Shown here in pieces: positions 1,198 through 63,973 of a DNA stretch of 64,000 nt. Position numbers and translations under genes: made by a program. The stretch is from Candidatus Dojkabacteria bacterium (GTDB taxonomy: Bacteria > Patescibacteriota > Dojkabacteria > SC72). Under the pieces are notes generated by a model, which saw only the letters and a program-made list of their open reading frames with translations, searched no databases and had not been told where the DNA came from. How positions within the stretch are numbered: the stretch's first letter is position 1; the number at the start of each line of letters is the position of its first letter. The DNA lies in NCBI GenBank assembly GCA_016182915.1, contig JACPFP010000003.1, positions 86,788-150,787 on the forward strand, given 5' to 3'.

Positions 1198-1249
1198 TGG
1201 TAGGTAATTAATGTAAAATGGGATTTGCGTTTAACTAAAGAAGATTACA

Positions 1250-7084: not shown

Positions 7085-7257
7085 ATCATAATCGGGGAAT
7101 TATGTGTATCAAGATGGGGAAATTATATGGGGTATTTAGATTAGAGTAATAGCAAATAGGAATAGATATCTATTTAGGTAGTATGGGAGAGAACATTTAA
7201 ACTCCAATTGTACACTCTGATATCATGGGTGGCTAATATGAGTGTACGCTATCTTGA

Positions 7258-7626
7258 ATGGGTTTATATGTTAAAGCTCCAATATATCAAAGTACTGTTT
7301 TTGGAGGTGAAATAATAGAGAATGGATTCATGGTTCCACAAATACTAATAGATTTAGGTGGAAGACTCTGCTTACGACAGCAGGGACTGGACGGAGTACT
7401 GCCTGATGATAGGATACCGGTAGGTGCATTCTCAAATCATGAGTCAAGGAATAACGCCCTTCTTGTATATGGAGAGGGTGGAATAGAGGCAGTAATGATT
7501 TCAGATCTCCCGTCGGCATTTGAAGGGACACAAAATTACGTTGCTGCCTGGAGTAATTTCATATCATACAGTGGAGAGCTTATTGCTGAAAGTTCAGATG
7601 GAGCACTTAAAGTGTATATGGGGTAA
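7258..7626 (+). CDS. hypothetical protein (locally higher GC ORF in a 580-bp intergenic region)
   Basis: 122-aa ORF with protein-like composition; no recognisable family. Confidence 0.25.
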   Translation: MGLYVKAPIYQSTVFGGEIIENGFMVPQILIDLGGRLCLRQQGLDGVLPDDRIPVGAFSNHESRNNALLVYGEGGIEAVMISDLPSAFEGTQNYVAAWSNFISYSGELIAESSDGALKVYMG

Positions 7627-7663
7627 GGGTAAAAAGCGTTTACATGTAATCCAAAACTTCTAC

Positions 7664-9766: not shown

Positions 9767-10672
9767 ATGGGAATATTTGATTTTTTCAAAAAAGAAGTAA
9801 AAAGAGAGTTTATAGCAAGGCCAGATGAGTCAAAAGATATGATTATCTATAAGTGGCCAGATAGTAATATAAGGATGTTGACCCAGCTAACAGTACAACA
9901 GGATGAGCTGGCTGTTTTCTTTAAGAAAGGACAGGTAGCAGGGACTTTACAGTCTGGTACACATACCCTTGATGGTGCGAGTATCCCCTTCTTAAGTGGA
10001 TTAATTGACAGTGCTACAGATGGGAATTTTTTGATGTCGGAACTATACTTTGTATCAACCCGTCAGTTCACAGACCTACCTTTTGGTGGAACAATTGATA
10101 ATGTACTCGATCCGCAGACAAATCTAGCAGTGGGTATTAGGGTCTTTGGGGAGTATGCAATGACAGTATCTGATCCACAGAAATTAATATTAACACTTGT
10201 TGGGACTCAGAATCTTCAAAGCAATGAAGATATTACAAACTGGATTAAAGATCTTCTTCTAAAACACTTCAGAGAGATGGTTTCCAGATATGTATCAACT
10301 GAAAAACAACCAATTCTTGGTATTGCATCTCAGGCATCCAACTTTGAGAAGATGGTACTAGGAACTGTTGCTCCTGATCTAATGGAGTATGGCGTGAATA
10401 TAGGGAAATTAGGTAATGTTACAGTATCAATCAAAGAAGATGATGAAGCCACCCTAAAACAGATGACTAGAGACTTTGCATACTCACAGAATATGAGTGC
10501 AGCTGATGCTGCAGTTAAGCTGGGTATGGCAAAAGGAATGGAAAGTGGAAGCGGAGCAGGCTCCTCTGCGGCTGATGCAGCTGCAACTGGAATGGGTATT
10601 GCAATGGGAATGAATGCTATGAAACAAGGTGAAAATAAGGAGGAGAAAAAGGATGAACAGCCTGAGAAGTAA
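9767..10672 (+). CDS. SPFH/band-7 domain protein (COG4260, YdjI-like)
   Basis: MGIFDFFKK...FIARPD N-terminus characteristic of COG4260 SPFH proteins; Gly/Ala-rich C-terminus. Confidence 0.6.
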   Translation: MGIFDFFKKEVKREFIARPDESKDMIIYKWPDSNIRMLTQLTVQQDELAVFFKKGQVAGTLQSGTHTLDGASIPFLSGLIDSATDGNFLMSELYFVSTRQFTDLPFGGTIDNVLDPQTNLAVGIRVFGEYAMTVSDPQKLILTLVGTQNLQSNEDITNWIKDLLLKHFREMVSRYVSTEKQPILGIASQASNFEKMVLGTVAPDLMEYGVNIGKLGNVTVSIKEDDEATLKQMTRDFAYSQNMSAADAAVKLGMAKGMESGSGAGSSAADAAATGMGIAMGMNAMKQGENKEEKKDEQPEK

Positions 10673-11582
10673 GTTGAGAAAGTTTCTACAGTACTTTGCT
10701 ACAGCTTTCCTGCTTCTCTTTTTCTGTACTACTTCAGTACTAGCAAGAGCAGGCGGAGGAGAAAGTTTTGGAGATGGAGGTTTTGATTCAGGAGGCTCCT
10801 CCAGTTTTGACTTTGGAGGTTCTTCATCAAATACAAATTACTCATCAACATCGAACTTTGGAGGAGGAAACCTAATACCTCTGATTATAATAATTGTTAT
10901 ACTTGTAATAATAGCATCAGGCAGGAGAAGAGGTGGAGTTTCAACAGATACAACAAGTGGAACACCAAATACTCCTGACCATAAATCACAGAGCATCGAG
11001 GAAATTCAGCAAAACCTTACTTCCCTTAAAAAGATTGATCCTAAGTTTGACGAACAAAAGTTTAAAACCCATTCAAAGAAGGTGTTTATGGCAGTACAGA
11101 AAGGATGGACAGAGAGAGATCAGGAGATCTGCAGGCCATTTATGGCAGAAGAGGTATACCAGAGCCATCAGATGCAGATTGATTCAATGAAAGAGAGTAA
11201 AGTCATTAATGTTCTTGAAAATATAGTTGTAGGGTCAACTGCTATAGCAAGAATAGATTTAGGTGAAGAGTATCACAAGATTGCAGTGAAAATCAGAGCC
11301 TCAATGAAGGATTACAAGGTAAATGAGGAAGATCCAAATAAGGTCGTAGAGGGTACTAAAGCACAAACCCCACCTTTTACTGAATACTGGATCTTTATAA
11401 GAAGATCAAACCTGAAAACCAAGATTAAAGATGGAATATTTGACAGAAAGTGTCCAAACTGTGGGGCACCAATTCACGTCTCTGTTTCAGGTATCTGTAA
11501 ATACTGTGATGCAAATGTAGTAAACGGGGATTATGATTGGGTACTATCTGAAATTATTCAAAAAAGTGAATGGATGGAATAG
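10653..11582 (+). CDS. Membrane protein with Gly/Ser-rich region, TM helix, Tim44-like C-terminal domain and CxxC...CxxC zinc ribbon (YdjG-like)
   Basis: CPNCGAP...CKYCDA zinc ribbon; DWVLSEI Tim44/NTF2-like C-terminus; start moved to internal Met to limit overlap. Confidence 0.45.
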   Translation: MNSLRSKLRKFLQYFATAFLLLFFCTTSVLARAGGGESFGDGGFDSGGSSSFDFGGSSSNTNYSSTSNFGGGNLIPLIIIIVILVIIASGRRRGGVSTDTTSGTPNTPDHKSQSIEEIQQNLTSLKKIDPKFDEQKFKTHSKKVFMAVQKGWTERDQEICRPFMAEEVYQSHQMQIDSMKESKVINVLENIVVGSTAIARIDLGEEYHKIAVKIRASMKDYKVNEEDPNKVVEGTKAQTPPFTEYWIFIRRSNLKTKIKDGIFDRKCPNCGAPIHVSVSGICKYCDANVVNGDYDWVLSEIIQKSEWME

Positions 11583-11827
11583 AGGAAAGAGTCTTGAAAA
11601 TTGAAGAAAGAAACAGAAGGGTAGAATTGGATAAGGAGTGGGAGACAAGCCTGGCAAGAAAAGTTCTTATTGCAATCCTTACATATATCGTTATTACCCT
11701 ATTCTTCCTTGTTACGCAGAATAGTTCTCCCTTCCTAAATGCAATAATTCCAACCCTAGGTTTCCTTTTATCCACCCTATCCCTTAACTATGCAAAAAAA
11801 CTCTGGATCCAAAACAGAAAAGTTTGA
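11570..11827 (+). CDS. small 2-TM membrane protein
   Basis: 85 aa; two hydrophobic helices after a charged coiled N-terminus. Confidence 0.4.
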   Translation: MDGIEERVLKIEERNRRVELDKEWETSLARKVLIAILTYIVITLFFLVTQNSSPFLNAIIPTLGFLLSTLSLNYAKKLWIQNRKV

Positions 11828-12521
11828 CTCTTCGCAATATAGGAAATATATATGGGAAAAGGAATACAGTACTCGTAAAGCCCTACCCTCTTCAAATACA
11901 AACAACCCCTCTTCCTCACTAAGATACTTCCTACACGATTATCCTAATATCAACAAAGATCTTGCTGTAGATATTGGTTGTGGAAACGGAAGAAACGCCA
12001 TCTTTCTACATAATCAAGGTTTCAAGAAGATTGTAGGTTATGATATTTCTGAAGAGGCGATAAAACAAGGAAAGAGTGAAGTTGCGAAACTCGGTCTTGA
12101 TGGCTCCATACAACTCAAAGCCCAAAATCTAAGTATAACGCTTGATATCGAAGATAAAAGCGCCGACCTAGTTATTGATATGATGACCCTACACTCCCTT
12201 TCAAAGGAGACAAGAGACTCTTGCGTGAAAGAGATTAAAAGGGTCTTAAAGCCTGGGGGATACTATCTCCTTTTTACAATCCAGGCAGATAGTCCTTCCT
12301 CACAAGAACTAATTAAAAAGTATCCAGGACCCGAAAACAACTCATACCGGTTTGAAGTAGAGGGAGACGTAATTACAGAGAAGGTATTTGAGAAGACTGA
12401 GTTAGAAAGGATATTTTCACCACTTAAACTAGTCTCCTACACTGAATTTGGATCTAATACGAAAGCATATAGCGGGATATACAGCAGAGTATATTGTAAT
12501 GCTCTATTTCAGAATATATAA
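11790..12521 (+). CDS. Class I SAM-dependent methyltransferase (TehB-like)
   Basis: VDIGCGNGRN motif I. Confidence 0.7.
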   Translation: MQKNSGSKTEKFDSSQYRKYIWEKEYSTRKALPSSNTNNPSSSLRYFLHDYPNINKDLAVDIGCGNGRNAIFLHNQGFKKIVGYDISEEAIKQGKSEVAKLGLDGSIQLKAQNLSITLDIEDKSADLVIDMMTLHSLSKETRDSCVKEIKRVLKPGGYYLLFTIQADSPSSQELIKKYPGPENNSYRFEVEGDVITEKVFEKTELERIFSPLKLVSYTEFGSNTKAYSGIYSRVYCNALFQNI

Positions 12522-12532
12522 TCACTTAGCTT

Positions 12533-12606
12533 GCGAGAGTAATTCAATTGGTTAGAATGTCTCCTTCCCAAGGAGAATGTTGCGGGTTCGAGTCCCGTCT
12601 CTCGCT
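12533..12606 (+). tRNA. tRNA-Gly(CCC)
   Basis: Acceptor GCGAGAG/CTCTCGC; anticodon loop UUCCCAA; no encoded CCA. Confidence 0.9.
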
Positions 12607-12719
12607 TTTACATATCGTAAACGATATATCGTTTATGATAAAGATTACAAAAATCAAATTTAGACTTTTTCCATTACAATCTCTATTCAACTCCCTTTAT
12701 AAACGGTAGAATAAGTAAT

Positions 12720-13070
12720 ATGAGAAAACCGTTCAAAAAAAATATAAATAAGGTTCAAATTGAAGAAGCACATGGTGGAAGTGGAAGAAGACAACTATTG
12801 TTGTCTAAAAACGATCCAATTTCCTCTCAATTAGAAGCTATGACAAAGGGTATTATTCCACTGAAAGGTGCGTATGATTGGCATACGCACGAGAATACAG
12901 ATGAATTCTTTCTAGTTACTCAAGGAATTGGGGTTATTGAATTTGAGGATGGTACTAAAATTGAATACTCGAAAGATGATTTAATCTATATTCCGTCAAA
13001 TACAAAACACAGAATTGAAAATACTGGCAAAGTGGAAAACGAGTTCATTTTTGTACGAATTAATCAATAG
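12720..13070 (+). CDS. Cupin domain protein
   Basis: WHTHENTDEFFLVTQG cupin motif 1. Confidence 0.7.
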   Translation: MRKPFKKNINKVQIEEAHGGSGRRQLLLSKNDPISSQLEAMTKGIIPLKGAYDWHTHENTDEFFLVTQGIGVIEFEDGTKIEYSKDDLIYIPSNTKHRIENTGKVENEFIFVRINQ

Positions 13071-13073
13071 AAT

Positions 13074-13616
13074 ATGGAACAAAAAATATTAGTACTGGCA
13101 TATCCAGGCTCAGGGAAAACCTATCTTGCTGAAAATTACAAAAATGTTAGTGACTTCGAATTTCAACACTTTCGATATGATTACGGTGAATATAAGCACT
13201 TACCACTTGAAAAGCTAAAGGGAAGAATCGAGATAAGAACAAATAATCCAGACTGGCCAAACAATTTCTTTAAGGCGCTAGATGACGAGCTCAAAAAAGA
13301 CAGAGTTGTAGTAGTTCCTTTTGCGACATCGTTACTCGAAATTTTGGATTTTCTTAAAAAATCTAGTGGAGTTAGAATAATATTTGCAATTCAGGACAAA
13401 GAATCACTTGAAGATTTGCTTCAAAGCTTTAAAAACAGAGGGAATAGTGAAGAGTTTATTGAACGAAGAAGGAATGATTTTCAAAAATGCTATGAAATAA
13501 TAGCTCAATCAAAATTTGAAAAGGTCTATCTCAACAAAGATGAATTTTTAAGCGATGCACTAGTACGTGTCGGAGTTGAATTGGAAAAGGGTGTTGGTGT
13601 TAAAAACTATATTTAG
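13074..13616 (+). CDS. P-loop NTPase / small kinase-like protein
   Basis: Walker A AYPGSGKT at N-terminus; 180 aa. Confidence 0.5.
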   Translation: MEQKILVLAYPGSGKTYLAENYKNVSDFEFQHFRYDYGEYKHLPLEKLKGRIEIRTNNPDWPNNFFKALDDELKKDRVVVVPFATSLLEILDFLKKSSGVRIIFAIQDKESLEDLLQSFKNRGNSEEFIERRRNDFQKCYEIIAQSKFEKVYLNKDEFLSDALVRVGVELEKGVGVKNYI

Positions 13617-13783
13617 TAGAAATTAATTGGTTTTGTATTGAAAATTGTCAACAAAAAGTGAACCCCCGATACTAAGTGCGGTTCGGACTTCCTCCTGTGC
13701 CCCGCTCCAAACTTCCCCCACTTTATTGAAAACACCTTGCGATAATACTATAGTTTCAATATATAAAATAATATTCAAAAATT

Positions 13784-14047
13784 ATGGATAAATTTGAGAA
13801 ACAGTGCCAGTCTTGCGGGATGCCTTTAGAAGAGGGTAAGAAATCTGGTTCAGAAATTGATGGAAGCTTGAGTAAAATGTTCTGTGTAAACTGCTATCAG
13901 GAAGGTAAATTCACTCAGCCTGATCTCACATTAGATGGAATGAAGCTGGTTTTAGATAATACCATTGGAAAAGAAGGGTTAAGAGGAAAAATCATAGCCT
14001 TTCTAGGTAAAATGCAATTGCCAAGCTTAAAAAGGTGGAAAGTATGA
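13784..14047 (+). CDS. Zinc-ribbon domain protein
   Basis: CQSCGMP...CVNC four-Cys arrangement. Confidence 0.5.
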   Translation: MDKFEKQCQSCGMPLEEGKKSGSEIDGSLSKMFCVNCYQEGKFTQPDLTLDGMKLVLDNTIGKEGLRGKIIAFLGKMQLPSLKRWKV

Positions 14048-14081
14048 GGCAATTAATTAAGATTACACTTTAATATATTTT

Positions 14082-14441
14082 ATGGATGGATCAAACCAAA
14101 TAGACAGCTATATTTCATCGCTAGAAGGTTGGAAGAAAGAACTTGTTTCTAGGCTCAGAGAGATAGTACTTAAATCAGATAGTAATATTGTTGAAGAATG
14201 GAAGTGGGGAGCACCAGTATGGTCTAAAGATGGCCTTGTATGTAGCGTAAGCGCGTTTAAAAACCATGTAGGAATGAACTTCTTCAAAGGAGCCTCCCTA
14301 GATGACGAAGGCGGAATATTTAATAATGGATTAGACTCAAAGAAAATGAGATCTATTAAATTCCTCGAAGGTGAGAAAGTAAATGAGAAGGGAATCCAAG
14401 GCCTTATACAAGCATCAATTACTTTAAACGAAGCTGGTTAA
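14082..14441 (+). CDS. DUF1801 (YdhG-like) domain protein
   Basis: EEWKWGAPVW...FKNHVGMNFF pattern recalled from DUF1801. Confidence 0.55.
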   Translation: MDGSNQIDSYISSLEGWKKELVSRLREIVLKSDSNIVEEWKWGAPVWSKDGLVCSVSAFKNHVGMNFFKGASLDDEGGIFNNGLDSKKMRSIKFLEGEKVNEKGIQGLIQASITLNEAG

Positions 14442-14459
14442 ATTGACGTTCACTTTAGT

Positions 14460-14714
14460 CTACGCTTCAACCAGTTCAAATGATTCGTCAACTTCTTTTA
14501 TTGGTTTACGTGTGTAACCATCTGCATCAGCATCTACAGGCGTTGGGGCTGCAACCCATTGTCCAGCAGGATTATCATAAGAATCCTTCATCACGGCATT
14601 CATTGTGTACTTATCATCTTCAACTCCGAAGATAAGATAAGTTGTACCTTCTGCATTTGCAATTATGTCATCAACCTCAAACCTAGCCTGTCGCTCTATT
14701 TCACTTATTTCCAT
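14460..14714 (-). CDS. hypothetical acidic protein
   Basis: 84-aa ORF, convergent with upstream gene. Confidence 0.3.
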   Translation of the reverse strand: MEISEIERQARFEVDDIIANAEGTTYLIFGVEDDKYTMNAVMKDSYDNPAGQWVAAPTPVDADADGYTRKPIKEVDESFELVEA

Positions 14715-14847
14715 AAAAATTCAGATTATAGTTAAAATGCCAGATTATACATTACAAGAATTAGACCATCAACTAAGAAGTCTTCATTCTATTGCATACT
14801 ATAAGAGCTGTAATGTAATATGAGGTGTTAAATTTGCCCAAAACAGC

Positions 14848-17724
14848 ATGAACGAGAAATTCAACAGCAGATCCCTACTCATCACAGGGTTAATACTTAC
14901 ATTTCTCAACACATTAATCCTCTTCACTATAATTGGAAAAGGCGTTTATGATCAGATAACCGCAAGGGGAAAAGAAGGGACAATTGTCCTTGCAAATGTT
15001 AACCCTGAGGAGGCAAATGCAATTTCTAAACAGTTCACATACCAGGCTACAACAGGGGAAACCCAGGAATACTACTCCCCCACTCTCGACACTTTAATTA
15101 AATATAATCCAAACACCCTCTTTCTATCAGACAGTATAGATTCTGTATCTATCAGCCGTAGAGGAACATATAATGCAGAAACATATAGTTCCCTAAGGAT
15201 AATGGATGGAGAGTTCTCCAAAGCAGAGTCGGAAACATACCTTAAATCCCTCTATGACGACGTAAAAATTGAGGAGGAAAGTAAGATAGAAGGGTTAAAT
15301 GCTATAAGATTTTCATACGTTAAAAAATCATATATTGACGATACAAAAGCGGTATACAATAACCTTTATATTTACAGAGTGGTCGGTGGAAAAACCCTGT
15401 ATGTAACTATTATATACCCAAGTAGTTTTAATGCTACCTCACTCTCATCAGAAATTGCCAAAGTGATGGTTAACTCTGAAGTTTCCCCAAAGAATGTTTC
15501 GGAGAAGATAAAATTAATACTTCCTAAACCAGGCGTTGAGGTTATGTACGACAGGCAGAAATGGGTGGCGAATAGTACAACCGAATACACAGCATACATT
15601 GAATATAGGAGTAAGGAATTCGAGAGCAATAAAGATAATCAGTTTGCAATAAATACTGTAAGCATAAATGCTTCCAGCTTTATAGAGGGAGAAAGTTTGG
15701 AAGAAGCTCACTCTATATACTATAAATACGATTCCGAAGCATACAAGAAGGACGACTTCAAATTTATAAAAGAGAAATCAACAAAAGAGTTAAACGGAAA
15801 GTCATATCTATACACTGAATATACCTATACTTTCTTTGGATCACTAAATACGAGTAGAGTCTACACAACACTAAGTAAAGATGGAAAATTCGCAGTTACA
15901 ATAAAGCTCTGGTCCTCAAAAGCAAATACTGATGGCCAGAAAGAGGCTGAAGAGCTATTTAAGACCATTAAATTCGTTGATACATCAAGCACAGACGAGT
16001 TAAGCCTTAGTAGGTTAACAGGTGATAGTGGAAATGTATTAGGAAGTTCAAGCCTAACGATTGATAAATCAGCATTGATTGCAAAACCATCTGTCGTGCA
16101 TATCTACAACAAAACATGTGTAGATATTAAGGTTTCGTCGCAAACTGGATTCACTAAAACACCGAATGGTACATACAAGGTGTGTGGAGGGGGATTTGGA
16201 ACCGGATTCTTCATTAGCAGTGATGGATACTTAATAACCAACGGTCATGTAGCATCTCCACACTCAATAGACGCAGTAGTCTCTTCCTTGGTAAGCGGCG
16301 GGGATATAACTTTCTGGACAGACCTTTCGTACGATATTGCAGAACTACTGTACAAAGAGAGGGGTATTAACTTAGCAAGCCTTTCTAACACAGATATTCT
16401 TCTTGTCGTACTTTCTACATTCATGGAACTAAATAATCAAGGTGGACTTACATTAACTCCCACCTATAACAATTTCATAGAAAATACAGAACCGTTTGTG
16501 ATTGATCCAAGAACCTTTGACCCTTCAAATGCTACAGCATTAACAGAAGCAAAAACTATTACAGCACAAGTTGATTCACAATTTGAAGCACAGTATAACT
16601 ATGCCAAAGGAGACAAATCAGGGATAAAAACACCTGATCTGGCCATCCTTAAGATTGATGACAATAGCAAGCAATTCCCATCCCTCAGATTAAGTTCGGC
16701 AGAATTAATTACATCAGGGATGCCAATACATGTATTGGGCTTTCCGGGAATTGTAAATCAGGACTCCATTTTCGCATCTTCCGCATCCCAAATTCCAACT
16801 ATAACCAATGGAACTATTGGAGCCGTAAAACCGAACTCAACAGGAGCTTTTAAACTAATACAGATTGATGCCTCAATTTCAGGAGGTAATAGTGGTGGCC
16901 CAATCGTCAACTCCGAAGGAGAGGTTGTTGGAGTTGCAACATATGGAATAAGTGATGGAAGCAGTTCCGGGGATTACAACATTGGGGTTTCAGCAGAGGA
17001 GATAACAAAACTCCTTGCAAGTAATAGCGTGAAGATCAATGAAGGGAAGGTAACTGAATATCTTAATGATGGAGTTGAAAATTTTGAAAAGGAGTATTAC
17101 AAATTTGCAATAAAGGACTTTAAAAAAGTAATTGAACTATACCCTGATTCAGAGAGTATACTAAATCCATTAATTGCAATATCAGAGAAGAAAATTGCAG
17201 ATGGAGATGATAAAACTCCGTTTATAGATACAAGAGTTATTGAAAGAGGATTGGCAAAAGTTGGAATCAAGGTAAGTGGTAACACAGTTCTGGTTGGTGT
17301 TGTTAGCGCAATAGGCCTAGTTATATCTCTTCTCTTCCTCTTTGTAGTCCTAGCAATGAAAAGACGCAAGGATAAGAAAGAACCTGCACCTGTAATTGGA
17401 AATTATGACACACCAGTAACTCCTCCACCTTCAGTTGAAACCCCACCTGTACCAGTCGCAACAGAACCTTCTGTACAAGTAGAACCTGTCCCTGTTCAAA
17501 CACCTTCCCCAACTCTGGTAGCTCCTCCAACCCCTACAATGCAAGAGGTTCCTGCACAACAACCAACACCAGCCACCACGCCAACACCTCCAGCTCCATT
17601 TGTACCTGTTGCCCCTGTAATGACATCAACGCCAGTTCCACAAGCAGATATAGATTCAGCAAATACAGTTGTACAACCTAATAATCAAGCACAAAATACA
17701 GTAGTTACGCCTCCAGTTGCTTAG
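14848..17724 (+). CDS. Membrane-anchored trypsin-like (S1/HtrA-type fold) serine protease with large N-terminal domain and Pro/Thr-rich C-terminal tail
   Basis: N-terminal TM; catalytic triad contexts LITNGHV, DLAILKID, GNSGGP; second TM near residue 820 followed by PT-rich low-complexity tail. Confidence 0.7.
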   Translation: MNEKFNSRSLLITGLILTFLNTLILFTIIGKGVYDQITARGKEGTIVLANVNPEEANAISKQFTYQATTGETQEYYSPTLDTLIKYNPNTLFLSDSIDSVSISRRGTYNAETYSSLRIMDGEFSKAESETYLKSLYDDVKIEEESKIEGLNAIRFSYVKKSYIDDTKAVYNNLYIYRVVGGKTLYVTIIYPSSFNATSLSSEIAKVMVNSEVSPKNVSEKIKLILPKPGVEVMYDRQKWVANSTTEYTAYIEYRSKEFESNKDNQFAINTVSINASSFIEGESLEEAHSIYYKYDSEAYKKDDFKFIKEKSTKELNGKSYLYTEYTYTFFGSLNTSRVYTTLSKDGKFAVTIKLWSSKANTDGQKEAEELFKTIKFVDTSSTDELSLSRLTGDSGNVLGSSSLTIDKSALIAKPSVVHIYNKTCVDIKVSSQTGFTKTPNGTYKVCGGGFGTGFFISSDGYLITNGHVASPHSIDAVVSSLVSGGDITFWTDLSYDIAELLYKERGINLASLSNTDILLVVLSTFMELNNQGGLTLTPTYNNFIENTEPFVIDPRTFDPSNATALTEAKTITAQVDSQFEAQYNYAKGDKSGIKTPDLAILKIDDNSKQFPSLRLSSAELITSGMPIHVLGFPGIVNQDSIFASSASQIPTITNGTIGAVKPNSTGAFKLIQIDASISGGNSGGPIVNSEGEVVGVATYGISDGSSSGDYNIGVSAEEITKLLASNSVKINEGKVTEYLNDGVENFEKEYYKFAIKDFKKVIELYPDSESILNPLIAISEKKIADGDDKTPFIDTRVIERGLAKVGIKVSGNTVLVGVVSAIGLVISLLFLFVVLAMKRRKDKKEPAPVIGNYDTPVTPPPSVETPPVPVATEPSVQVEPVPVQTPSPTLVAPPTPTMQEVPAQQPTPATTPTPPAPFVPVAPVMTSTPVPQADIDSANTVVQPNNQAQNTVVTPPVA

Positions 17725-56654: not shown

Positions 56655-57113
56655 TTAGCTCTTCTTAAATACAGAATACAATCCATATCCGAGAACTGCA
56701 AGCAAGGCTGTACCACCAATTATCATAAATACTGTGTCAGTAGCTGAAGATTTATATTCTGGTTCCTTAACCACGATGTCATATTTATCAGAGAAGTATT
56801 TAATGATTGGTTGATCGCCAACTAAATATTCGGTATCACTTACTATCATAAAAGGTACTCCTTGATCTGATTGAGGGGCGTTATATTTCTTAAATTCTGC
56901 ATCTAATTTATCAATATTCTCTTGATTATTTAGGGTTTCTATAATCTCCACCTTATCGTTTAAACTATACTGATTCAAAAAGGCCTTAACTTTTGCACAA
57001 TGTTGACATCCTTCTCTTACATATAATTTGAGTGGGGCTTCCTCTGCATATAATGGAGCTAGGGAGAAGAGAAGAAAGAAGATACCTGCAATAATTGTAA
57101 GTATTTTTTTCAT
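56655..57113 (-). CDS. Thioredoxin-fold protein (CxxC) with signal peptide and C-terminal TM
   Basis: CQHC motif. Confidence 0.5.
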   Translation of the reverse strand: MKKILTIIAGIFFLLFSLAPLYAEEAPLKLYVREGCQHCAKVKAFLNQYSLNDKVEIIETLNNQENIDKLDAEFKKYNAPQSDQGVPFMIVSDTEYLVGDQPIIKYFSDKYDIVVKEPEYKSSATDTVFMIIGGTALLAVLGYGLYSVFKKS

Positions 57114-57211: not shown

Positions 57212-57550
57212 ATGCCAAAAGTACCTATAAATACGCTTGGGAAAGAAAGATTTCAACACTCCCCTGACGCAAGCAGTTATGTCCTCCTTTATCAGGAAAA
57301 TGTATACCTACCTAGAACTCCAAGATATGAAGGAATTCCATTCGAATTCAAAATTGTGGAAGTACAGGGAGGGTATAAAGTTAACTTTGTAGAAGGTCCA
57401 TTAGTTGAGACTCCTGAAAATGCTCAATCAATACAAGAGTTAGTTTTTACAGATATTGTTCAGTTAGAATTTGCTATGGAGGCTGAAGAGGTTAACCTCT
57501 ATGCTTTAGTTAATAAGGCAGACGGTAACTATATTGAGTTCGTTTTATAA
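57212..57550 (+). CDS. hypothetical protein
   Basis: 112-aa ORF. Confidence 0.35.
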   Translation: MPKVPINTLGKERFQHSPDASSYVLLYQENVYLPRTPRYEGIPFEFKIVEVQGGYKVNFVEGPLVETPENAQSIQELVFTDIVQLEFAMEAEEVNLYALVNKADGNYIEFVL

Positions 57551-57613
57551 TTATTTTTCCTTTTCTATACGGGTTGCCAAATCAAAACATGGACTATATA
57601 ATGCTATAGATAT

Positions 57614-57685
57614 TCCGCGGTAGCTCAATGGTGGAGCGGCTCGCTGTTAACGAGTAGGTTGAAGGTTCGAGTCCTTCCCGCGGAG
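57614..57685 (+). tRNA. tRNA-Asn(GTT)
   Basis: Anticodon loop CUGUUAA; acceptor TCCGCGG/CCGCGGA; G discriminator. Confidence 0.9.
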
Positions 57686-57694
57686 TAGTTATTT

Positions 57695-58192
57695 TCATTC
57701 TGTCTTAAGAACCTTTTTTAATACTTCTGAAGTGGAAGACATGTTCATAGCATCTATTTGAAGAAATTCAATGCCTAGTTCTTCGGCTATCTTCTTCTTT
57801 CTGAAAACATATTTATCCTTTACTGTAACAGTTAACAGGAATGTTGGTTGCAATTTTCTCCAAATCTCGGTATGTATTAAAATGGCTTCTTTACTTGCAA
57901 AATCATAAATATCATCCACTCGGAAAATATAATCTATAGATTTCAACTCGTTCAACTGCTCCGCCCTATCCACAAACGTGTTTATTGGTCTTCCAACTCC
58001 TTTTGATAACTCAATAGATTTGTCATTTTCTAGCCCAATAAAAAGAATATCGACTTTATTTTTAGCTTCTTTGAAAAACTTAATATGACCAATATGAAGA
58101 ATATCAAAGCAACCAGTAATTAAGCCAACTTTCTTACCTTCTTTCCTATACTCTTTACTTAAATTGCATGCTTTTTGAAGTTTGATAATCAC
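57695..58192 (-). CDS. Cytidylyltransferase-like nucleotidyltransferase (HIGH motif; TagD/RfaE-II-like)
   Basis: GCFDILHIGH motif. Confidence 0.6.
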   Translation of the reverse strand: MIIKLQKACNLSKEYRKEGKKVGLITGCFDILHIGHIKFFKEAKNKVDILFIGLENDKSIELSKGVGRPINTFVDRAEQLNELKSIDYIFRVDDIYDFASKEAILIHTEIWRKLQPTFLLTVTVKDKYVFRKKKIAEELGIEFLQIDAMNMSSTSEVLKKVLKTE

Positions 58193-58300
58193 TGACTATA
58201 ATTATAGCTCAAAATTCAATAGTCTGCTAACTAAAGTCCAATCTACTTCAAAGTTAAACTTCAGGTTAAGGAATATGTCATATACGGGGAGCCATATCTT

Positions 58301-58987
58301 CTATGAAACTTTTGTTCCCTCAACCAAAAGGGTGTCACAATAAAACATATAAGGAGGATTTGCTTCTTTCGTATCATCAACGACACTGTCTCCATCAGTA
58401 TATTTCATATTGAAATTCGGAAATGCATTATTTAGCATTTTAATTGCAGTTTCTTTTGTGTACATAGGTTCTTCACCAAAAACTAATCTTTGTCCTTCTC
58501 TATCAATTCTTTTTATATTAATTGAGAATTCAATAGCTATTTTCCCTCCAACTCTTAATATTCTTGATATTTCAGTAGCCATCACGTTGAAGATCATTTC
58601 TGGAAAAAGGTATAACGTACCCGAATTAAACACCCCATCGTAGCTATTTGAGTCTAATGGAAATGATTTTACTAGATTAAAAACTTTTAACTCCAATTTT
58701 CTTTGCAGATTGACCGGAGTATTTGCAAATAATTTATCTAACGCTCCTTGATCTATATCAACATCAAGAACATTATCTGCAGTATTTGCTATTAAATTAT
58801 TATATCTTCCGTCTCCAGCAGCTAAGTTTACCCAGCTTGTACCCTTTTTTACAACCCGCTTTAGAAAATCTACTGTTGCCGTATCCTCTTTTCCCCATAT
58901 TGAACTTTTTGAGGTTTTAGAATAATCAATACCTTCTGAGAATACAAATTCCTTTTCATTTGCAGGAACTGGTTTGGCTTTTGGCAT
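58301..58987 (-). CDS. Class I SAM-dependent methyltransferase
   Basis: VNLAAGDGRY motif I. Confidence 0.6.
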   Translation of the reverse strand: MPKAKPVPANEKEFVFSEGIDYSKTSKSSIWGKEDTATVDFLKRVVKKGTSWVNLAAGDGRYNNLIANTADNVLDVDIDQGALDKLFANTPVNLQRKLELKVFNLVKSFPLDSNSYDGVFNSGTLYLFPEMIFNVMATEISRILRVGGKIAIEFSINIKRIDREGQRLVFGEEPMYTKETAIKMLNNAFPNFNMKYTDGDSVVDDTKEANPPYMFYCDTLLVEGTKVS

Positions 58988-59140
58988 TTTTTGTAAAACT
59001 AAAGTTATGATTAATTATACAACAACATCTGGTAATTGACTTAGTTGATTGTAAATCAGCCTTAAAGTTAAGAAGTATATAGTATTGTAGCATTACTTCT
59101 TCTTTCATCATCTAGCTATAAATTAGTGATATAATTTCGC

Positions 59141-59554
59141 ATGATAAAAATATCAAAAGCAACAAGGAAAGATGACTTAAATAAAGAATGGAAAGAGTTC
59201 TCACATTTAAAATATGGTCAAGGGGCCAATTGGATTGAAAAGATCTACAGATTTAAGGCGGTAGAAGATGGGAAGATATTAGGCACAATAGAAGGTAAGT
59301 ATGAGCCAGGAGTTATATATATTTCAGCCCTAATGGTAACAGAAAACGCTCGTGGGAAAGGTATTGGAAGAATGCTAATTGAAAAAACAGAAAAGTGGGG
59401 AAAGACTCTAGGTGCTCATAGAACATGGTTAAGCACAGGAGCCAATTGGTCTAATCGTTCATTTTACGAAAAGCTAGGATTCAAAGTGATTGCGAACTTC
59501 TCCGATTTCTATTTTCATAAAGACTTTGTAATTTACAGCCGTTTAATAAAATAA
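59141..59554 (+). CDS. GNAT-family N-acetyltransferase
   Basis: RGKGIGRML motif A; TATAAT ends 6 nt before the ATG. Confidence 0.75.
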   Translation: MIKISKATRKDDLNKEWKEFSHLKYGQGANWIEKIYRFKAVEDGKILGTIEGKYEPGVIYISALMVTENARGKGIGRMLIEKTEKWGKTLGAHRTWLSTGANWSNRSFYEKLGFKVIANFSDFYFHKDFVIYSRLIK

Positions 59555-59577
59555 AATATTATTTAACTATTCCACAT

Positions 59578-59958
59578 ATGAAAACAATATTAGTAGATGC
59601 AGTTGGAACATTTGTAGTAGATATGAAGATAAATGAAGAGATGCATAAACTCCTTGAACAGTATCCAAATAGAAAGATAATCTTAACCAATGCAAATGAT
59701 GAACAGTTAGCTACTTTTGGATTAGTAAACATGCCATATGATATGTTCACCCTTAAGCATAACCCAGACAAAACGGATCCAAAGTATTTCGAAGCTATGT
59801 TAAGTAACTTTAACCTAACTCCTGAGGATGTAATATACTTTGAACATAGCCAGGAAGCAGTAGATAGTGCGAAATCAGTGGGTATTACATCATACTTCTA
59901 TGACGCAGAAAAGAAGGATTTAGAATCATTGAAGACCTTCCTAGATAGCAACTGCTAA
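59578..59958 (+). CDS. small HAD-like hydrolase fold protein
   Basis: ILVDAVGTF N-terminal DxxG-like motif; 126 aa. Confidence 0.4.
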   Translation: MKTILVDAVGTFVVDMKINEEMHKLLEQYPNRKIILTNANDEQLATFGLVNMPYDMFTLKHNPDKTDPKYFEAMLSNFNLTPEDVIYFEHSQEAVDSAKSVGITSYFYDAEKKDLESLKTFLDSNC

Positions 59959-59980
59959 AACAATAGGAGTATAATCGGGT

Positions 59981-60451
59981 ATGAATAAGCCCAGATTCTC
60001 AATTACACATAAAGATCCTCAGTTGTTGAAACTAATCTCTGAAACTGAGCAAAAAATACTTGCTATCTGGGCAATTGAGTGTGCAGAACGAGTTCTGCCA
60101 TACTTTGAAAATATGTTTCCACAAGACAAACGACCTAGAAATGCACTAGAAACCCTTCAAACATGGATTGAGACTGGAGAGTTTAAGATGTCAGTTATAC
60201 GTAAAGCCTCACTAGATTCTCACCGTGCAGCACGTGAAGTTGGAGATGATAACCCCGCTCGCTCTGCGGCAAGAGCTGCTGGACAGGCTGTAGCGACAGC
60301 GCATGTCCCTAGACACGCCTACGGACCTGCAATTTATGCCCAACAAGCTATATTCAGAGCCTCACCTCCTGAAGAGGCTGAGAAGAGGGCATCTAAAGAA
60401 AGAGATTGGCAATATAATAGATTAGTGAAATTAAGAAGTCGGATTAACTAA
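59981..60451 (+). CDS. hypothetical protein resembling an Imm5-type putative immunity protein family (from memory; unverified); locally higher GC
   Basis: AIWAIECAERVLPYFE...RPRNALETLQTWIETGE pattern. Confidence 0.35.
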   Translation: MNKPRFSITHKDPQLLKLISETEQKILAIWAIECAERVLPYFENMFPQDKRPRNALETLQTWIETGEFKMSVIRKASLDSHRAAREVGDDNPARSAARAAGQAVATAHVPRHAYGPAIYAQQAIFRASPPEEAEKRASKERDWQYNRLVKLRSRIN

Positions 60452-60513
60452 ATATATATTCACTTTATTTATAGTATTGCTATAATCAAAAGTTTAATAC
60501 TAAAAAATTTCAT

Positions 60514-61026
60514 ATGGAAGATACAATTAAGCTAGTAGGTATAAAGGATCTACAAGCAGTCTACAAACTTGTAAGAGCATCTGCAGAATGGATAAAAAAA
60601 GAATATGGGTATACACATTGGGAAGAATATTACACTTACGAGAAAGTTGAACAAAATTTCAAAAAAGGTGATGTTTACGGCTTATATATTGGGAACAGAT
60701 TGCTTGCAACATTTAGCGTAGGGTATAAGTACCCCGTTTACTATGCGGAAGAAGATTTAGCCCATTTTGAGGATCCCAAAGCACAAGCCTACTACCTAAC
60801 AACTTTATGCGTATCTCCACAACATCATGGGAAAGGATATGCAAAGTCCCTTATAAAACACTTAGAGAAGTTAGCCCTAGAAAAAGGCGTTAAATATATC
60901 AGGTTTGACGCTAAGGGTGAATATACAGAACTAATAGAGTTCTATAAAAGACTGGATTACAAAATCGTAGGTGAGTTACTTGACGAAGGTGAAATTTACT
61001 ACCTATTTGAAAAGAAGATGATATAG
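60514..61026 (+). CDS. GNAT-family N-acetyltransferase
   Basis: QHHGKGYAKSLI motif A. Confidence 0.75.
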   Translation: MEDTIKLVGIKDLQAVYKLVRASAEWIKKEYGYTHWEEYYTYEKVEQNFKKGDVYGLYIGNRLLATFSVGYKYPVYYAEEDLAHFEDPKAQAYYLTTLCVSPQHHGKGYAKSLIKHLEKLALEKGVKYIRFDAKGEYTELIEFYKRLDYKIVGELLDEGEIYYLFEKKMI

Positions 61027-61043
61027 TAAATGGATAATACTAC

Positions 61044-61469
61044 CTACCCTCTTGAATTACAGTAGTATTCTATGGCCTCACTGAAAAACGGTGATAAACC
61101 TACCTTCACTTTATCTATATTCTTCGTAAACCTAACATCCATAACATAACCCTGTCCTAACCCCCTTAGTATTTCTAGTGTACAGTTATAGAAACTATCC
61201 GAAATATAATCCCTCCACTCTTGTACAAGAGCCTGTACTTCAGGATCAGAGGGCTCCCTGTCCATTAGCTCAGAAAGCTTTTTAAGTATCTTGGAACCTC
61301 TCTCTAATATCTCTTTTAACTCCTCTTTTGAATATTTCGAGGTTCTTTCATGACTCTCTTTATACGCATCAGAATAACCAAACCTATTGAAAGTTTCTTC
61401 CTGGTACTTCTCCTGATGTTCAACTGGATCTAATTCCTCTTTTTCTTTATATTCGTCTAATATGTTCAT
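61044..61469 (-). CDS. TipAS-like antibiotic-recognition domain protein (stand-alone)
   Basis: WRDYISDSFYNCTLEILRGLGQGYV pattern. Confidence 0.5.
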   Translation of the reverse strand: MNILDEYKEKEELDPVEHQEKYQEETFNRFGYSDAYKESHERTSKYSKEELKEILERGSKILKKLSELMDREPSDPEVQALVQEWRDYISDSFYNCTLEILRGLGQGYVMDVRFTKNIDKVKVGLSPFFSEAIEYYCNSRG

Positions 61470-61566
61470 AGCATATCAATACCAAAATACAGATATTAAT
61501 TCAACTTAATATGCTTAAGCACTAGAGGATATTGACAAAGTTTGAAGAATATTTTAATTATTAATT

Positions 61567-61681
61567 GGAGTCATTTAGCGACTAATCTTGCTAGTTAACG
61601 TGGGATGAGTTTAGCAAGTACAGGCACTGTGAGCAATTATATTGTCCGTGCATTCCCTGTCAGCTACGTGGCTCCACTTTT
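61567..61681 (+). ncRNA. Candidate structured RNA, copy 1 (115 nt; P1 GGAGUCA/UGGCUCC; P2; P3; terminal U-tract)
   Basis: TTGACA-17-TAATTA promoter ends 6 nt before the 5' G; paralogous to 62250-62364 with compensatory changes in P2. Confidence 0.5.
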
Positions 61682-61684
61682 CGT

Positions 61685-62146
61685 CTAATCCTTTGCTATA
61701 TTTACTCTCCCTCCATTGAAGTATGCAACATATACTTCCCTATTATCAATGTATATTCTTTCTATTTGCCTAAACTCTTCTATGGTTCCCTCACACTCAT
61801 TCGTATACTTCATATTACCTTCTACATACTCCATTGGTCCTCTATGAACTAAATCACCGTCAGGACCTTTTGAAAGTGCTGATTTTAGAAAAGCATAGAT
61901 ATCTGCTCCTCCTATAACCTTTCCCCAATATACACATCTAAAAATATCCTTACCATCCTCCCAAATAGTCTCATTACCAGAGTATGGTTCCCCACCATAG
62001 AATTCATCCTCATAGGTATAGTTATCAATTTGTAGTTTTAGAACATTTCCATTCTTTCCGTTGCTCTCATACTTTGTATTAGGATCGGTGTATCCTTTAA
62101 GATTAAACTGTAAAAGAAGGGATCTTAGCCTTTGTGCATCAATCAT
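61685..62146 (-). CDS. hypothetical protein (DUF-type, 153 aa)
   Basis: ORF; stop codon 4 nt from RNA copy 1's 3' end. Confidence 0.4.
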   Translation of the reverse strand: MIDAQRLRSLLLQFNLKGYTDPNTKYESNGKNGNVLKLQIDNYTYEDEFYGGEPYSGNETIWEDGKDIFRCVYWGKVIGGADIYAFLKSALSKGPDGDLVHRGPMEYVEGNMKYTNECEGTIEEFRQIERIYIDNREVYVAYFNGGRVNIAKD

Positions 62147-62249
62147 ACAGGTATATGGTTAACTTAATCTTGATACATTATATACCAACTTTAATAGATA
62201 TTTATTATAGGGTGTAGACAGGTATCAAAGAATATAGTATTAATTATTC

Positions 62250-62364
62250 GGAGTCATTTCTAAACAGACCCTACCAGTTAACACGGGATGCGTTTGGTGG
62301 GTACTTACAGTATGAGTGATCATGTTGTATGTCTATTCCCTGTATTATAAATGGCTCCACTTTT
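62250..62364 (+). ncRNA. Candidate structured RNA, copy 2 (115 nt), 17 nt upstream of the ogt-like ATG
   Basis: TAGACA-17-TATTAA promoter; same length and conserved blocks as copy 1. Confidence 0.5.
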
Positions 62365-62381
62365 ATTGATACACCACACTT

Positions 62382-62705
62382 ATGCAAACCTTCATAGAAA
62401 AAATATATTCAATTGCAAGTATGATACCCAAGGGAAAGGTATCTACATATAAACAGCTTGCACAGTTAGCAGGAAACCCAAGAGCATATAGAGCAGTTGG
62501 AAGTGCCATGAGGAAAAATCCCGATACTACAATAGTTCCATGCCATAGAGTGGTTGGAAGTGATGGAAAAATGCACGGATATTCAGGAGGAGAAGGTATT
62601 GAAACAAAGATTATTAAACTTCGTAACGAAGGCGTTAAGGTTGTAAACGGAAAAGTTAATCTAGATACTTTTCTTTGGAATAAAGCTCCAGAAAAAAGCC
62701 TTTAA
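62382..62705 (+). CDS. ogt: Methylated-DNA-protein-cysteine methyltransferase (Ogt/MGMT) DNA-binding/active-site domain protein
   Basis: PCHRVV active-site motif; 107 aa (C-terminal domain only). Confidence 0.75.
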   Translation: MQTFIEKIYSIASMIPKGKVSTYKQLAQLAGNPRAYRAVGSAMRKNPDTTIVPCHRVVGSDGKMHGYSGGEGIETKIIKLRNEGVKVVNGKVNLDTFLWNKAPEKSL

Positions 62706-63674
62706 GCCCTTCATACTCAAAATCATTAAAACTGTAAATCCAAGAACTATAATCAGATCTATAAATACATTTATGTGTATTCCCCTTAAGAAAACATAGA
62801 GAATTATAAGGTGGTAGAAGAAGATCTCATAGGAATATCTAGCCAACCAGGTTACGATGCTATTAAACACACCCTTGAAAGCTATCCTCTGAAGTATTAT
62901 CCAGCTCAATGAGATTGTTGCAAGATTATAAACGACAAAATATGGAGTTGGAGGATATTCATTATGAAAAATACTCAGACTTAGTTTGAACGAGTATAGA
63001 ATGCCAAGAATAATGACGGTCATAATTGCAGTAGACCTGAAAAGAAACCTAAGATTCTCAGTACTGTAGTGCTTTTGAAGGAAGTAACCTGAGATATAGA
63101 TAATAAACCAACCAAAAACAATACTTGCCTTATCCAGAATATTTATATCAAGGAAGAGAGTAACTGCTGAGAATAGGATTGAGAGAAATAGAAAGAGTGA
63201 GTACCAGGTATACTTTGATTTAGTAATCCAGTTTAATACCAAAGAAACAGTTGTTAGAATTATGAAAAGCCTTGGAATCCAGTTATTACCCACCCCACCT
63301 ATTAGAAATATCGTGTCAAAGACATATCTGAAGTCCAGTTTCGCAACTACCTCCCCTATCCTTCCCATCAGAAGCATTGAAAGCAGAAAAAGGATGGCAA
63401 AGGTATAGTATGGGAGTACAATCCTGTTGAACCTCTTAAGAAAGATAGTTAGGAACTCCCAGGAGTTTGTAATCTTTACCTCACCCGCCGACATAAGAAA
63501 ACCGGATACAAAAACAAAGATACCTACGCTAAAATGGATGAGTTCCCATGCAATATTATATCCAGTACCCTCCCCTTTATAGTTTGCAAGAACATGGGTT
63601 AAAACAACAAGAACTGCAGCAAAAGCCTTTAATTTATCAACCTCCGGATAGAATTTCCTATCTAAATGCATCAA
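62661..63674 (-). CDS. Acyltransferase-3 (OafA-like) family membrane protein
   Basis: 10-TM; N-terminal AAVLVVLTHV region. Confidence 0.55.
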   Translation of the reverse strand: MMHLDRKFYPEVDKLKAFAAVLVVLTHVLANYKGEGTGYNIAWELIHFSVGIFVFVSGFLMSAGEVKITNSWEFLTIFLKRFNRIVLPYYTFAILFLLSMLLMGRIGEVVAKLDFRYVFDTIFLIGGVGNNWIPRLFIILTTVSLVLNWITKSKYTWYSLFLFLSILFSAVTLFLDINILDKASIVFGWFIIYISGYFLQKHYSTENLRFLFRSTAIMTVIILGILYSFKLSLSIFHNEYPPTPYFVVYNLATISLSWIILQRIAFKGVFNSIVTWLARYSYEIFFYHLIILYVFLRGIHINVFIDLIIVLGFTVLMILSMKGLKAFFWSFIPKKSI

Positions 63675-63688
63675 TTAGTAGCTCAAGT

Positions 63689-63973
63689 TTAATCGTGATG
63701 CTCGGCACTCATAGCATCCTCTTTTGTAACGTGTTTTGTACCAGGCTTATGATTAGCAGGTGAGTATATTGTATACAACTTTAAATCTTCTGTCACCGAA
63801 GTATTTATAAGATTGTGAAGTGTACCTGCTGGTACAACTATCGCACTACCGTCTTTAACAGCATTCTCCTCCCCATTCATCACTATCTTTCCCTCTCCAG
63901 ACTCAATCCTGAAGAACTGATCAACCGTGTTATGAACCTCTTCCCCAATCTCCTCGCCTGGTTTTAAGCACAT
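63689..63973 (-). CDS. Cupin domain protein (may extend past window end)
   Basis: Cupin motif region GEEVHNTVDQFFRIESGEG. Confidence 0.45.
   Translation of the reverse strand: MCLKPGEEIGEEVHNTVDQFFRIESGEGKIVMNGEENAVKDGSAIVVPAGTLHNLINTSVTEDLKLYTIYSPANHKPGTKHVTKEDAMSAEHHD

Follow-up and report, generated by a model that had tools for sequence, protein, structure and literature searches.

The High-Pathogenicity Island of Yersinia and E. coli, found at asnT/asnW/asnV, carries a P4-type tyrosine integrase by the tRNA gene, is accompanied by 17-bp tRNA-derived repeats, deviates in GC and moves as a unit. Chromosomal hotspots that turn over by recombination in their flanks, often integrase-free, are an established framework: an integrase is encoded in fewer than half, a tRNA or tmRNA lies in 29%, many are without a recognisable mobile element, and the concentration of transferred genes in them rises with genome size (Oliveira et al. 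2017, PMC5635113). Here we analysed a 64,000-nt stretch of DNA from Candidatus Dojkabacteria bacterium (the window; GenBank assembly GCA_016182915.1, contig JACPFP010000003.1, positions 86,788 to 150,787 of the forward strand) and, in it, the interval between a tRNA-Asn(GTT) gene and a minimal MGMT/Ogt gene (ogt). We read this tRNA-Asn/ogt slot as probably a chromosomal gene-turnover hotspot (a region of genomic plasticity) lying between two blocks that are collinear across Dojkabacteria genera, because its anchors are fixed, its size and content vary in six lineages, orthology among its genes is a patchwork, and one relative (L013) has a recombinase element at the tRNA. The slot is a changing set of short housecleaning, detoxification and small-molecule-modifying genes together with structured RNA.

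An earlier reading of the letters alone (the sequence-only reading) had placed an accessory island, or a resistance/immunity locus, at 57614-63973 of the window. What it observed is confirmed: tRNA-Asn(GTT) is followed by small genes on both strands (ARAGORN and Rfam for the tRNA, Pfam for the genes), all eleven of its domain labels were reproduced by Pfam and NCBIfam, and its two structured RNA copies are real, both on the + strand. Its island interpretation is partly supported, since the content 3' of tRNA-Asn is unconserved though both flanks are conserved, but the region as delimited there is not a single unit. The proper borders of the variable locus are 57687-62381, not 57614-63973.

Domains were called with Pfam and NCBIfam, tRNA genes with ARAGORN and Rfam, defence families with PADLOC, and RNA with covariance models (CM) and Rfam 15. 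Relatives were found via three proteins, namely the hibernation factor HPF (contigs L004-L008), the Trx-like protein (L013 and L014-L022) and Ogt (L027-L034), and five other Dojkabacteria lineages together with the window made six lineages for comparison. Core proteins of the relatives average 47-70% identity to those of the window, i.e. a genus- or family-level distance. For WS6 GW2011_GWF2_39_15 the left block lies on L006 and the tRNA-Asn/ogt interval on L027; L013 is from Logan SRR22388156, L031 is a contig of Logan ERR3281024, and L032 is a 792-kb contig of JGI 3300037810. tRNA-Asn and Ogt stand on a single contig in L027, L031 and L032, and both flank blocks are spanned by L031 and L032. 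The Logan assembly of SRR12113422 matches the window at 100% identity and carries the sequence on to 72.7 kb (L002).

The left block (iPGM, PrfB, FtsE, FtsX, M23, LTD, SurA-like, HPF, Trx-like) keeps its order up to the Trx-like gene and tRNA-Asn, where it ends: 8-11 of its genes are collinear at 45-83% identity in L004-L008, L013, L014/15, L031 and L032, and the Trx-like gene itself keeps its place at 59-65% identity in L004-L007, L013, L014/15 and L031. tRNA-Asn is found at the equivalent place in L006/L027, L013, L014-16 and L032, and in L031 it is split by an intron. The right block starts with Ogt, Acyl_transf_3 and cupin, continues past the cupin gene in L002 with M16-like peptidase, PGA_cap, Methyltransf_21 (MT21), CofD, LPG synthase, Pol IV (IMS), S24 peptidase and CarD, and is collinear at 48-83% identity in L027, L029, L031 and L032. 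Ogt has the same position and orientation in all four (70-74% identity), and its nearest homologues are all from Dojkabacteria/WS6 (69-74%). Acyl_transf_3 keeps its place in L027 and L031 (48-49% identity) and is missing in L029 and L032; the cupin gene sits at the same place in L031 at 83% identity. Ogt, Acyl_transf_3 and cupin lie in this conserved block, and therefore 3 of the 11 genes of the proposed island are not island; a gene order conserved among relatives, which the sequence-only reading had itself named as speaking against an island, is what we found for these three. The synteny comparison thus splits the proposed region: 57687-62381 varies, and the right third is collinear in relatives, which puts the right border drawn from sequence alone about 1.6 kb too far. 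Position 63973, taken as the border of the cupin gene, is an internal ATG of that gene, which runs to 64069.

Retention of flank and interval genes was compared by Fisher's exact test in three independent genome comparisons, with 17/17 flank genes against 1/8 interval genes retained (p=1.7e-5), 20/24 against 0/8 (p=4.7e-5) and 17/20 against 0/8 (p=5.3e-5). Ordinary decay of gene order between distant Candidate Phyla Radiation (CPR) genomes, with the tRNA at the edge by coincidence, would suit the distance of the lineages (average amino-acid identity roughly 47-70%), the native composition of the interval described below, and the smaller differences in the right block (some lineages lack Acyl_transf_3, cupin or CofD, and in L032 5 kb of DNA are inserted after Ogt). 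It does not account well for 17-20 collinear flank genes against 0-1 of 8 interval genes (p about 2e-5 to 5e-5), for a break at the identical two anchors in all six lineages, or for a site-specific recombinase element at exactly this site in L013, and we regard it as unlikely.

Between the anchors, every slot among the six lineages is filled, at 2.0-9.9 kb, and no empty site was found. The interval of L027 (9,864 bp) holds ORFs of 141 aa and 69 aa, Glyoxalase, DUF1801, the structured RNA, M73-like, S26, CarboxypepD_reg, an ORF of 101 aa and a two-component system with an ABC/FtsX cluster; that of L031 (about 5.4 kb) holds HNH-like, 3-dmu-9_3-mt, AlaX-like, GNAT, miniHAD and MFS genes; that of L015/L029 (about 5.9 kb) holds 2 NUDIX, 3-dmu-9_3-mt, DUF5680, DinB_2, DUF1801 and Zip; and that of L032 (2,013 bp) holds three unrelated ORFs. 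In all lineages the cargo is biased to short single-domain enzymes and binders (NUDIX, HAD, glyoxalase, DinB_2, GNAT, TipAS, DUF1801, DUF5680), and in the window the segment genes are about half the usual length (164 aa against 316 aa elsewhere in the window, p=0.0085). These families are generally tied to housecleaning, damage control and small-molecule modification.

An all-against-all comparison of 56 proteins from the six lineages (51 interval proteins and 5 from ORFs before the tRNA) gave five orthologue-level pairs only, each joining a different pair of lineages: miniHAD between the window and L031 (66% identity; core mean of that genome pair 60%), Glyoxalase between L027 and L013 (73%; core mean 62%), DUF1801 between L027 and L015 (65%; 62%), NUDIX between L015 and L013 (69%; 67%), and 3-dmu-9_3-mt between L031 4991-5491 and L015 5157-5657 (87%; core mean 58%, core maximum 69%). 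Four of the five stand near core divergence, as predicted by differential loss from an older shared array, and the last suggests lateral exchange, a candidate recent event between Dojkabacteria lineages within the hotspot. Sharing of this patchy kind, at a divergence like that of core genes, speaks for an old array under continual remodelling rather than for a single insertion. The mini-HAD gene is the only protein gene of the window's interval with an orthologue in another lineage's interval (L031 7369-7749); the CTP_transf_like and Methyltransf_11 genes have a counterpart in no relative's interval, TipAS was not found in the relatives' intervals, and GNAT 2 shares only 23% identity with the GNAT of the L031 interval. 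The DUF5680 protein was considered as an orthologue of that of L014/15 and rejected (28% identity, E about 1e-3).

The Imm5-like gene is a separate case. Its higher GC, reported in the sequence-only reading, is real (0.431 against a mean of 0.375), but as a sign of foreign origin it fails, because the excess stems from amino-acid composition and not from foreign codon usage, the GC at third codon positions (GC3) being 0.293 and below average. More than 5,000 homologues at 70-75% identity were found, including ones in Chloroflexota and on contigs of up to 4.6 Mb, and the closest lies between uvrB and uvrC of an unrelated genome. Since 70-75% identity to other phyla exceeds the identity among Dojkabacteria core proteins, the gene was likely acquired across phyla and ameliorated at synonymous sites. 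It is always a singleton of about 155 aa, and such conservation is striking for a putative immunity protein without a toxin partner.

One route by which DNA can enter the slot is shown by L013, in which an element of about 7 kb (about 1000-8137) sits directly at the 3' end of tRNA-Asn. It encodes a 496-aa large serine recombinase (Resolvase, Recombinase, Zn_ribbon_recom; N-terminus MKAVILARVSTKRQ), the C-terminal end of which lies antisense within the tRNA-Asn 3' half, with the last 12-14 codons overlapping. The tRNA-Asn of L013 ends ...GCGGAGCCA, with CCA encoded here only, against ...GCGGAGT in the window, L006 and L014. The cargo comprises Eco57I-like, DUF3800 and four unknown ORFs, and past the element follow Glyoxalase and NUDIX genes, whose orthologues are the first genes in the intervals of L027 and L015, so the element sits between the tRNA and a native small-gene array. 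L013 showed no direct repeat of the tRNA 3' end, and its recombinase had no relatives in the viral contig collection.

The window was examined for marks of a comparable event. A discrete island or its remnant, integrated as one piece at the tRNA-Asn 3' end and covering 57.6-64.0 kb, would explain why the variable content abuts the tRNA (the first variable gene has its edge at 57695, the tRNA its end at 57686), why that content is missing at the equivalent positions of relatives, and why GC is slightly low, and integration at the same tRNA does occur in L013. None of the hallmarks of an integrated element was found in the window, be it an integrase, an att repeat, a recombinase remnant, foreign codon usage or similarity to phages or plasmids. 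Pfam detected no integrase or recombinase among the segment genes or in the 10 kb beyond the window end in L002, and tblastn with the L013 recombinase matched merely 12 trivial amino acids antisense to the tRNA. A second copy of the 22-nt tRNA 3' end at ≤3 mismatches was absent from the window and L002, including the 15 kb downstream, so the search past the window end that the sequence-only reading had proposed, for a tRNA repeat and an integrase, returned neither (15 kb and 10 kb, respectively); blastn-short with the tRNA 3' end over 72.7 kb gave chance matches of 9-14 nt only, and blastn found no DNA similarity to phage or plasmid records. For serine integrases a core of 2-12 bp suffices and no long repeats arise; the lack of an att repeat is therefore not conclusive.

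The heterogeneous composition described in the sequence-only reading is weakly true: at 34.6% against 37.4%, the GC of 57687-62381 is among the lowest 4% of 4.7-kb windows, but its tetranucleotide deviation is unremarkable (matched or exceeded by 13% of windows), GC3 of the segment genes is 0.311 against 0.323 (p=0.59), and their codon fit to the window is native, slightly better if anything. To this native codon usage are added the conserved-core status of Ogt, Acyl_transf_3 and cupin and the sharing of miniHAD and the structured RNA with the intervals of different relatives at core-like divergence, so that part of the content at least predates the split of the lineages. We therefore consider integration as one piece quite improbable; the window content is domesticated and not an intact or recently integrated mobile element. 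A resistance/immunity locus was likewise backed by no specific test: none of the 10 proteins tested matched a PADLOC defence family, the NCBIfam AAC/streptothricin/ArsN models scored the GNATs at 19-30 bits against cut-offs of 125-420 (140-420 for AAC/streptothricin), the Imm5-like gene has no toxin partner, its neighbours being HAD and GNAT genes, and TipAS has no MerR partner.

For the hotspot reading, we propose that elements which occasionally integrated site-specifically at tRNA-Asn, and afterwards lost their mobility genes, would have added genes to the slot, and that differential loss from an older, larger array, through deletion of genes, would have removed them. To judge from their families, the slot genes would most likely give habitat-specific protection from reactive or toxic small molecules and competitor toxins. 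Several points weigh against the hotspot reading. A mobility gene is found in only one of the six lineages; replacement by homologous recombination in the conserved flanks would be a further step, and it is carried over from the general model; and with near-native composition, recent import is demonstrable for no gene except, arguably, the Imm5-like one. The lineages are distant, and the variability is accordingly long-term and not ongoing strain-level flux. No second strain of the window species was found, and each window protein looked up was recorded in one sample only.

Besides its protein genes the slot holds a structured RNA, which occurs in two of the six lineages: twice in the window, and once in L006 7415-7536 (-) = L027 1961-2082 (+), where it lies inside the tRNA-Asn/ogt interval and is oriented with respect to the tRNA as in the window (CM 84.8 bits, E about 5e-17). 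It folds as a three-way junction with a closing stem P1, a P2 hairpin with GGGA in its loop, a GNRA-capped P3 (tetraloops GCAA, GUGA and GUGA in the three copies) and UCCC in the junction. In the alignment 98% of cells are paired, whereas slid controls reach about 41%; compensatory changes affect 13 of 35 pairs, compared with 1-2 in controls, and one of them falls in the GGGA/UCCC pseudoknot, which reads AGGA/UCCU in the third copy. Six compensatory pairs separate copy 2 from copy 1, and the P2 hairpin of copy 1 is almost identical to that of the L006/L027 copy; copy 1 would be the orthologue-like copy and copy 2 a diverged paralogue. Folding z-scores were -2.3 for the + strand of copy 1 against -1.2 for its - strand, and -3.5 for the + strand of copy 2. 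A minus-strand reading was rejected, as it folds worse and turns about 9 G-U pairs into A-C mismatches, and so was a peptide-coding reading, in which the ATG in GGGAUG opens unconserved ORFs of 27, 20 and 10 codons and the stem substitutions are compensatory.

All three copies are preceded by -35/-10-like hexamers ending about 7 nt before UUGGAG (TTGACA-18-AATTAT upstream of copy 1), and their 3' end is P1 followed by UUUU. We read the RNA as a putative stand-alone small RNA (sRNA) gene and not a riboswitch, because of these promoter-like hexamers and the U-run, because no gene lies consistently downstream, and because Ogt orthologues occur without the RNA. A coordinated detoxification/immunity regulon, in which the two RNAs act as cis riboswitches, could draw on the conserved three-stem pseudoknotted fold, which resembles aptamers, on the small-molecule-related genes adjoining, and on copy 2, which ends 14 nt before the Ogt start codon. 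Copy 1, however, is without a downstream ORF and faces the 3' end of a convergent gene; the next gene lies some 370 nt beyond the L006/L027 copy, past that copy's own U-run; the Ogt orthologues in L029, L031 and L032 are without the RNA upstream; each copy has its own promoter-like hexamers and final stem with UUUU; neighbouring genes differ by genome; and there is no Rfam riboswitch match. We hold such a regulon to be highly improbable.

The sRNA copies matched no Rfam 15 family when searched with gathering thresholds, with E≤5 across 7 kb or with E≤10 across 881 nt, and a three-sequence CM run with filters off on the loci of the other four lineages gave nothing above 15 bits. The exact pattern had 3 matches in JGI metagenomes, all within coding sequence without stems, which equals chance expectation, and two viral-contig scans gave 0 matches. 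We are evenly divided on whether the RNA is an undescribed family of stand-alone structured sRNA in Dojkabacteria that is itself part of the hotspot's flexible gene pool. Its occurrence is patchy, as is that of the slot's protein genes. It might be encoded by a gene that moves or duplicates, or it might act in trans or bind protein in connection with the accessory genes. If true, it would add to a very small number of structured RNAs outside the housekeeping set that are known in CPR bacteria. Antisense within copy 1 (window 61636-61663, - strand) lies a near-consensus sigma-70-type site (CTGACA-16-TATAAT, 11/12), directed towards TipAS; it is unconserved in the other two copies and may be chance.

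Table 1. Features of the tRNA-Asn/ogt slot and its borders (window coordinates)
Feature	Position	Strand	Evidence and remarks
Trx/glutaredoxin-like membrane protein	56655..57113	-	last gene of conserved left block; NCBI: glutaredoxin family protein, Ca. Dojkabacteria
Lineage-specific 112-aa ORF	57212..57550	+	between left core and tRNA; no Pfam or NCBIfam match
tRNA-Asn promoter-like site TTGCCA-17-TATAAT	57574..57602	+	11/12 consensus matches
tRNA-Asn(GTT)	57613..57686	+	ARAGORN; Rfam 69.8 bits; left anchor of variable interval
Variable interval	57687-62381		4,695 bp; 8 protein genes and 2 RNA copies
Cytidylyl/adenylyltransferase-like gene (RfaE domain II-like)	57695..58192	-	Pfam CTP_transf_like 50 bits; variable content
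SAM-dependent methyltransferase	58301..58987	-	Methyltransf_11 33.5 bits; variable content
GNAT acetyltransferase 1	59141..59554	+	Acetyltransf_1 62 bits; variable content
Mini-HAD hydrolase, 126 aa	59578..59958	+	weak in Pfam; NCBIfam HAD-IA 36 bits, over its cut-off
Imm5-like orphan	59981..60451	+	Imm5_like 140 bits
GNAT acetyltransferase 2	60514..61026	+	Acetyltransf_1 42.5 bits; variable content
Stand-alone TipAS-like ligand-binding domain	61044..61469	-	TipAS 118 bits, full length, without MerR domain; variable content
Structured sRNA copy 1	61565..61684	+	CM 138 bits
DUF5680 protein	61685..62146	-	DUF5680 76 bits; sRNA copy on either side
Structured sRNA copy 2	62248..62367	+	CM 140 bits
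Minimal MGMT/Ogt	62382..62705	+	DNA_binding_1 102 bits; TIGR00589 86 bits (cut-off 46); right anchor
Acyl_transf_3 membrane acyltransferase	62661..63674	-	Pfam 79 bits; right block, semi-conserved
Cupin_2 gene	63689..64069, beyond window end (64000)	-	126 aa; Cupin_2 56 bits in L002; right block, semi-conserved

The coordinates of the features are collected in Table 1. The 112-aa ORF before the tRNA has no counterpart in any relative by tblastn, and its position holds unrelated small ORFs or nothing in other lineages. The TGCCAAAT...TATATAATG block upstream of tRNA-Asn is also present in L006, L013 and L014. The CTP_transf_like gene scored 87 bits against TIGR02199, under the 181-bit cut-off. 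Ogt consists of the C-terminal domain alone with an intact PCHR active-site motif (its sequence reads ...TIVPCHRVVGSDG...), and with this motif present it is predicted to be a catalytic mini-MGMT; the N-terminal domain of full-length Ogt is missing, as it is in other MGMT family proteins of about 100 aa from CPR and DPANN. Ogt and Acyl_transf_3 are convergent, and their 3' ends overlap by 45 nt in the window (62661-62705), 21 nt in L027 (10280-10300) and 39 nt in L031 (10280-10318), an arrangement kept in three lineages. A second, smaller variable spot lies between Ogt and the M16-like gene: it holds Acyl_transf_3 and cupin in the window, nothing in L029, and in L032 an insertion of about 5 kb (10297-15365) with a second iPGM, an ABC-type ATPase, a 207-aa unknown and SLFN_AlbA_2.

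In L031 the tRNA-Asn(GTT) gene (about 4312-4650), missed by ARAGORN, is interrupted in the anticodon loop. A group I intron of about 270 nt lies there (4379-4602; Rfam RF00028, 73.2 bits), between a 5' exon ending ...GGCTGT and a 3' exon that resumes (T)AACCG, and the ORF after the split tRNA is weakly HNH-like (20.5 bits). A limited literature search on Dojkabacteria islands, Patescibacteria hotspots and group I introns in tRNA-Asn found nothing specific, and no bacterial tRNA-Asn with a reported group I intron.

Contig ends at the tRNA (L004, L005, L007 and the Logan assembly) were rejected as a sign of strain heterogeneity, as shared tRNA k-mers break metagenome assemblies. In the same-sample Logan assembly the locus falls in three contigs (L009 = window 57619-59396), with breaks at about 57619-57647, in the tRNA, and at 59376-59396, the GNAT motif A region (RGKGIG). 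Strain variants of the 1.8-kb CTP-transferase/methyltransferase segment might explain the breaks, as might simply k-mers common to other organisms; the break at 59376-59396 was rejected as evidence of strain heterogeneity, as conserved-motif k-mers shared between organisms break assemblies.

The locus itself is of modest import, and its unclassified sRNA promises the most for further work. What it offers is a case in which small, reduced CPR genomes keep a defined swap slot while the order of the surrounding 25 kb or so is fixed across genera, with the same tRNA-Asn also serving as the attachment site of a serine-recombinase element. The slot is also a concrete, alignable place for studying niche-specific gene acquisition by episymbiotic bacteria.

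Compared with known RNA systems, the structured RNA resembles the three-way-junction pseudoknotted aptamers and sRNAs of Rfam in its length of about 115 nt, closing stem, two hairpins, GNRA-capped P3 and loop-to-junction pseudoknot. It differs from these in that no gene regularly follows it and in its apparent nature as an independent transcription unit. The slot shares with integron cassette arrays its short unrelated genes and a repeated structured element between some of them, but there is no IntI, both strands are used, and the element is repeated at two positions only; unlike attC hairpins, that element is a promoter-bearing three-way-junction RNA that covaries as RNA, including G-U pairs, on one strand.

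Like the High-Pathogenicity Island, the slot has accessory DNA starting at a tRNA-Asn 3' end, whereas the integrase, the 17-bp repeats and the unit mobility of that island are not present in the window, and instead of a deviant GC the interval has a slightly low one. Large-serine-recombinase elements of the phiC31/Bxb1/TP901 type share with L013 a Resolvase+Recombinase+Zn_ribbon protein that abuts the attachment site; the L013 element carries cargo of restriction-modification type (Eco57I, DUF3800) and is present in that relative only, not in the window. The likeness to the hotspots of PMC5635113 extends to core anchors, genome-specific accessory sets, a tRNA at one edge, an integrase in some genomes only, and cargo enriched in small defence-, repair- and detoxification-type genes. 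Those hotspots were defined within species, whereas the lineages here are of genus or family level in an uncultivated CPR class, and unlike their trend with genome size, the host genomes here are tiny (source contig 0.5 Mb). The locus is a new example, from a CPR class, of a well-known locus type, the tRNA-anchored chromosomal hotspot.

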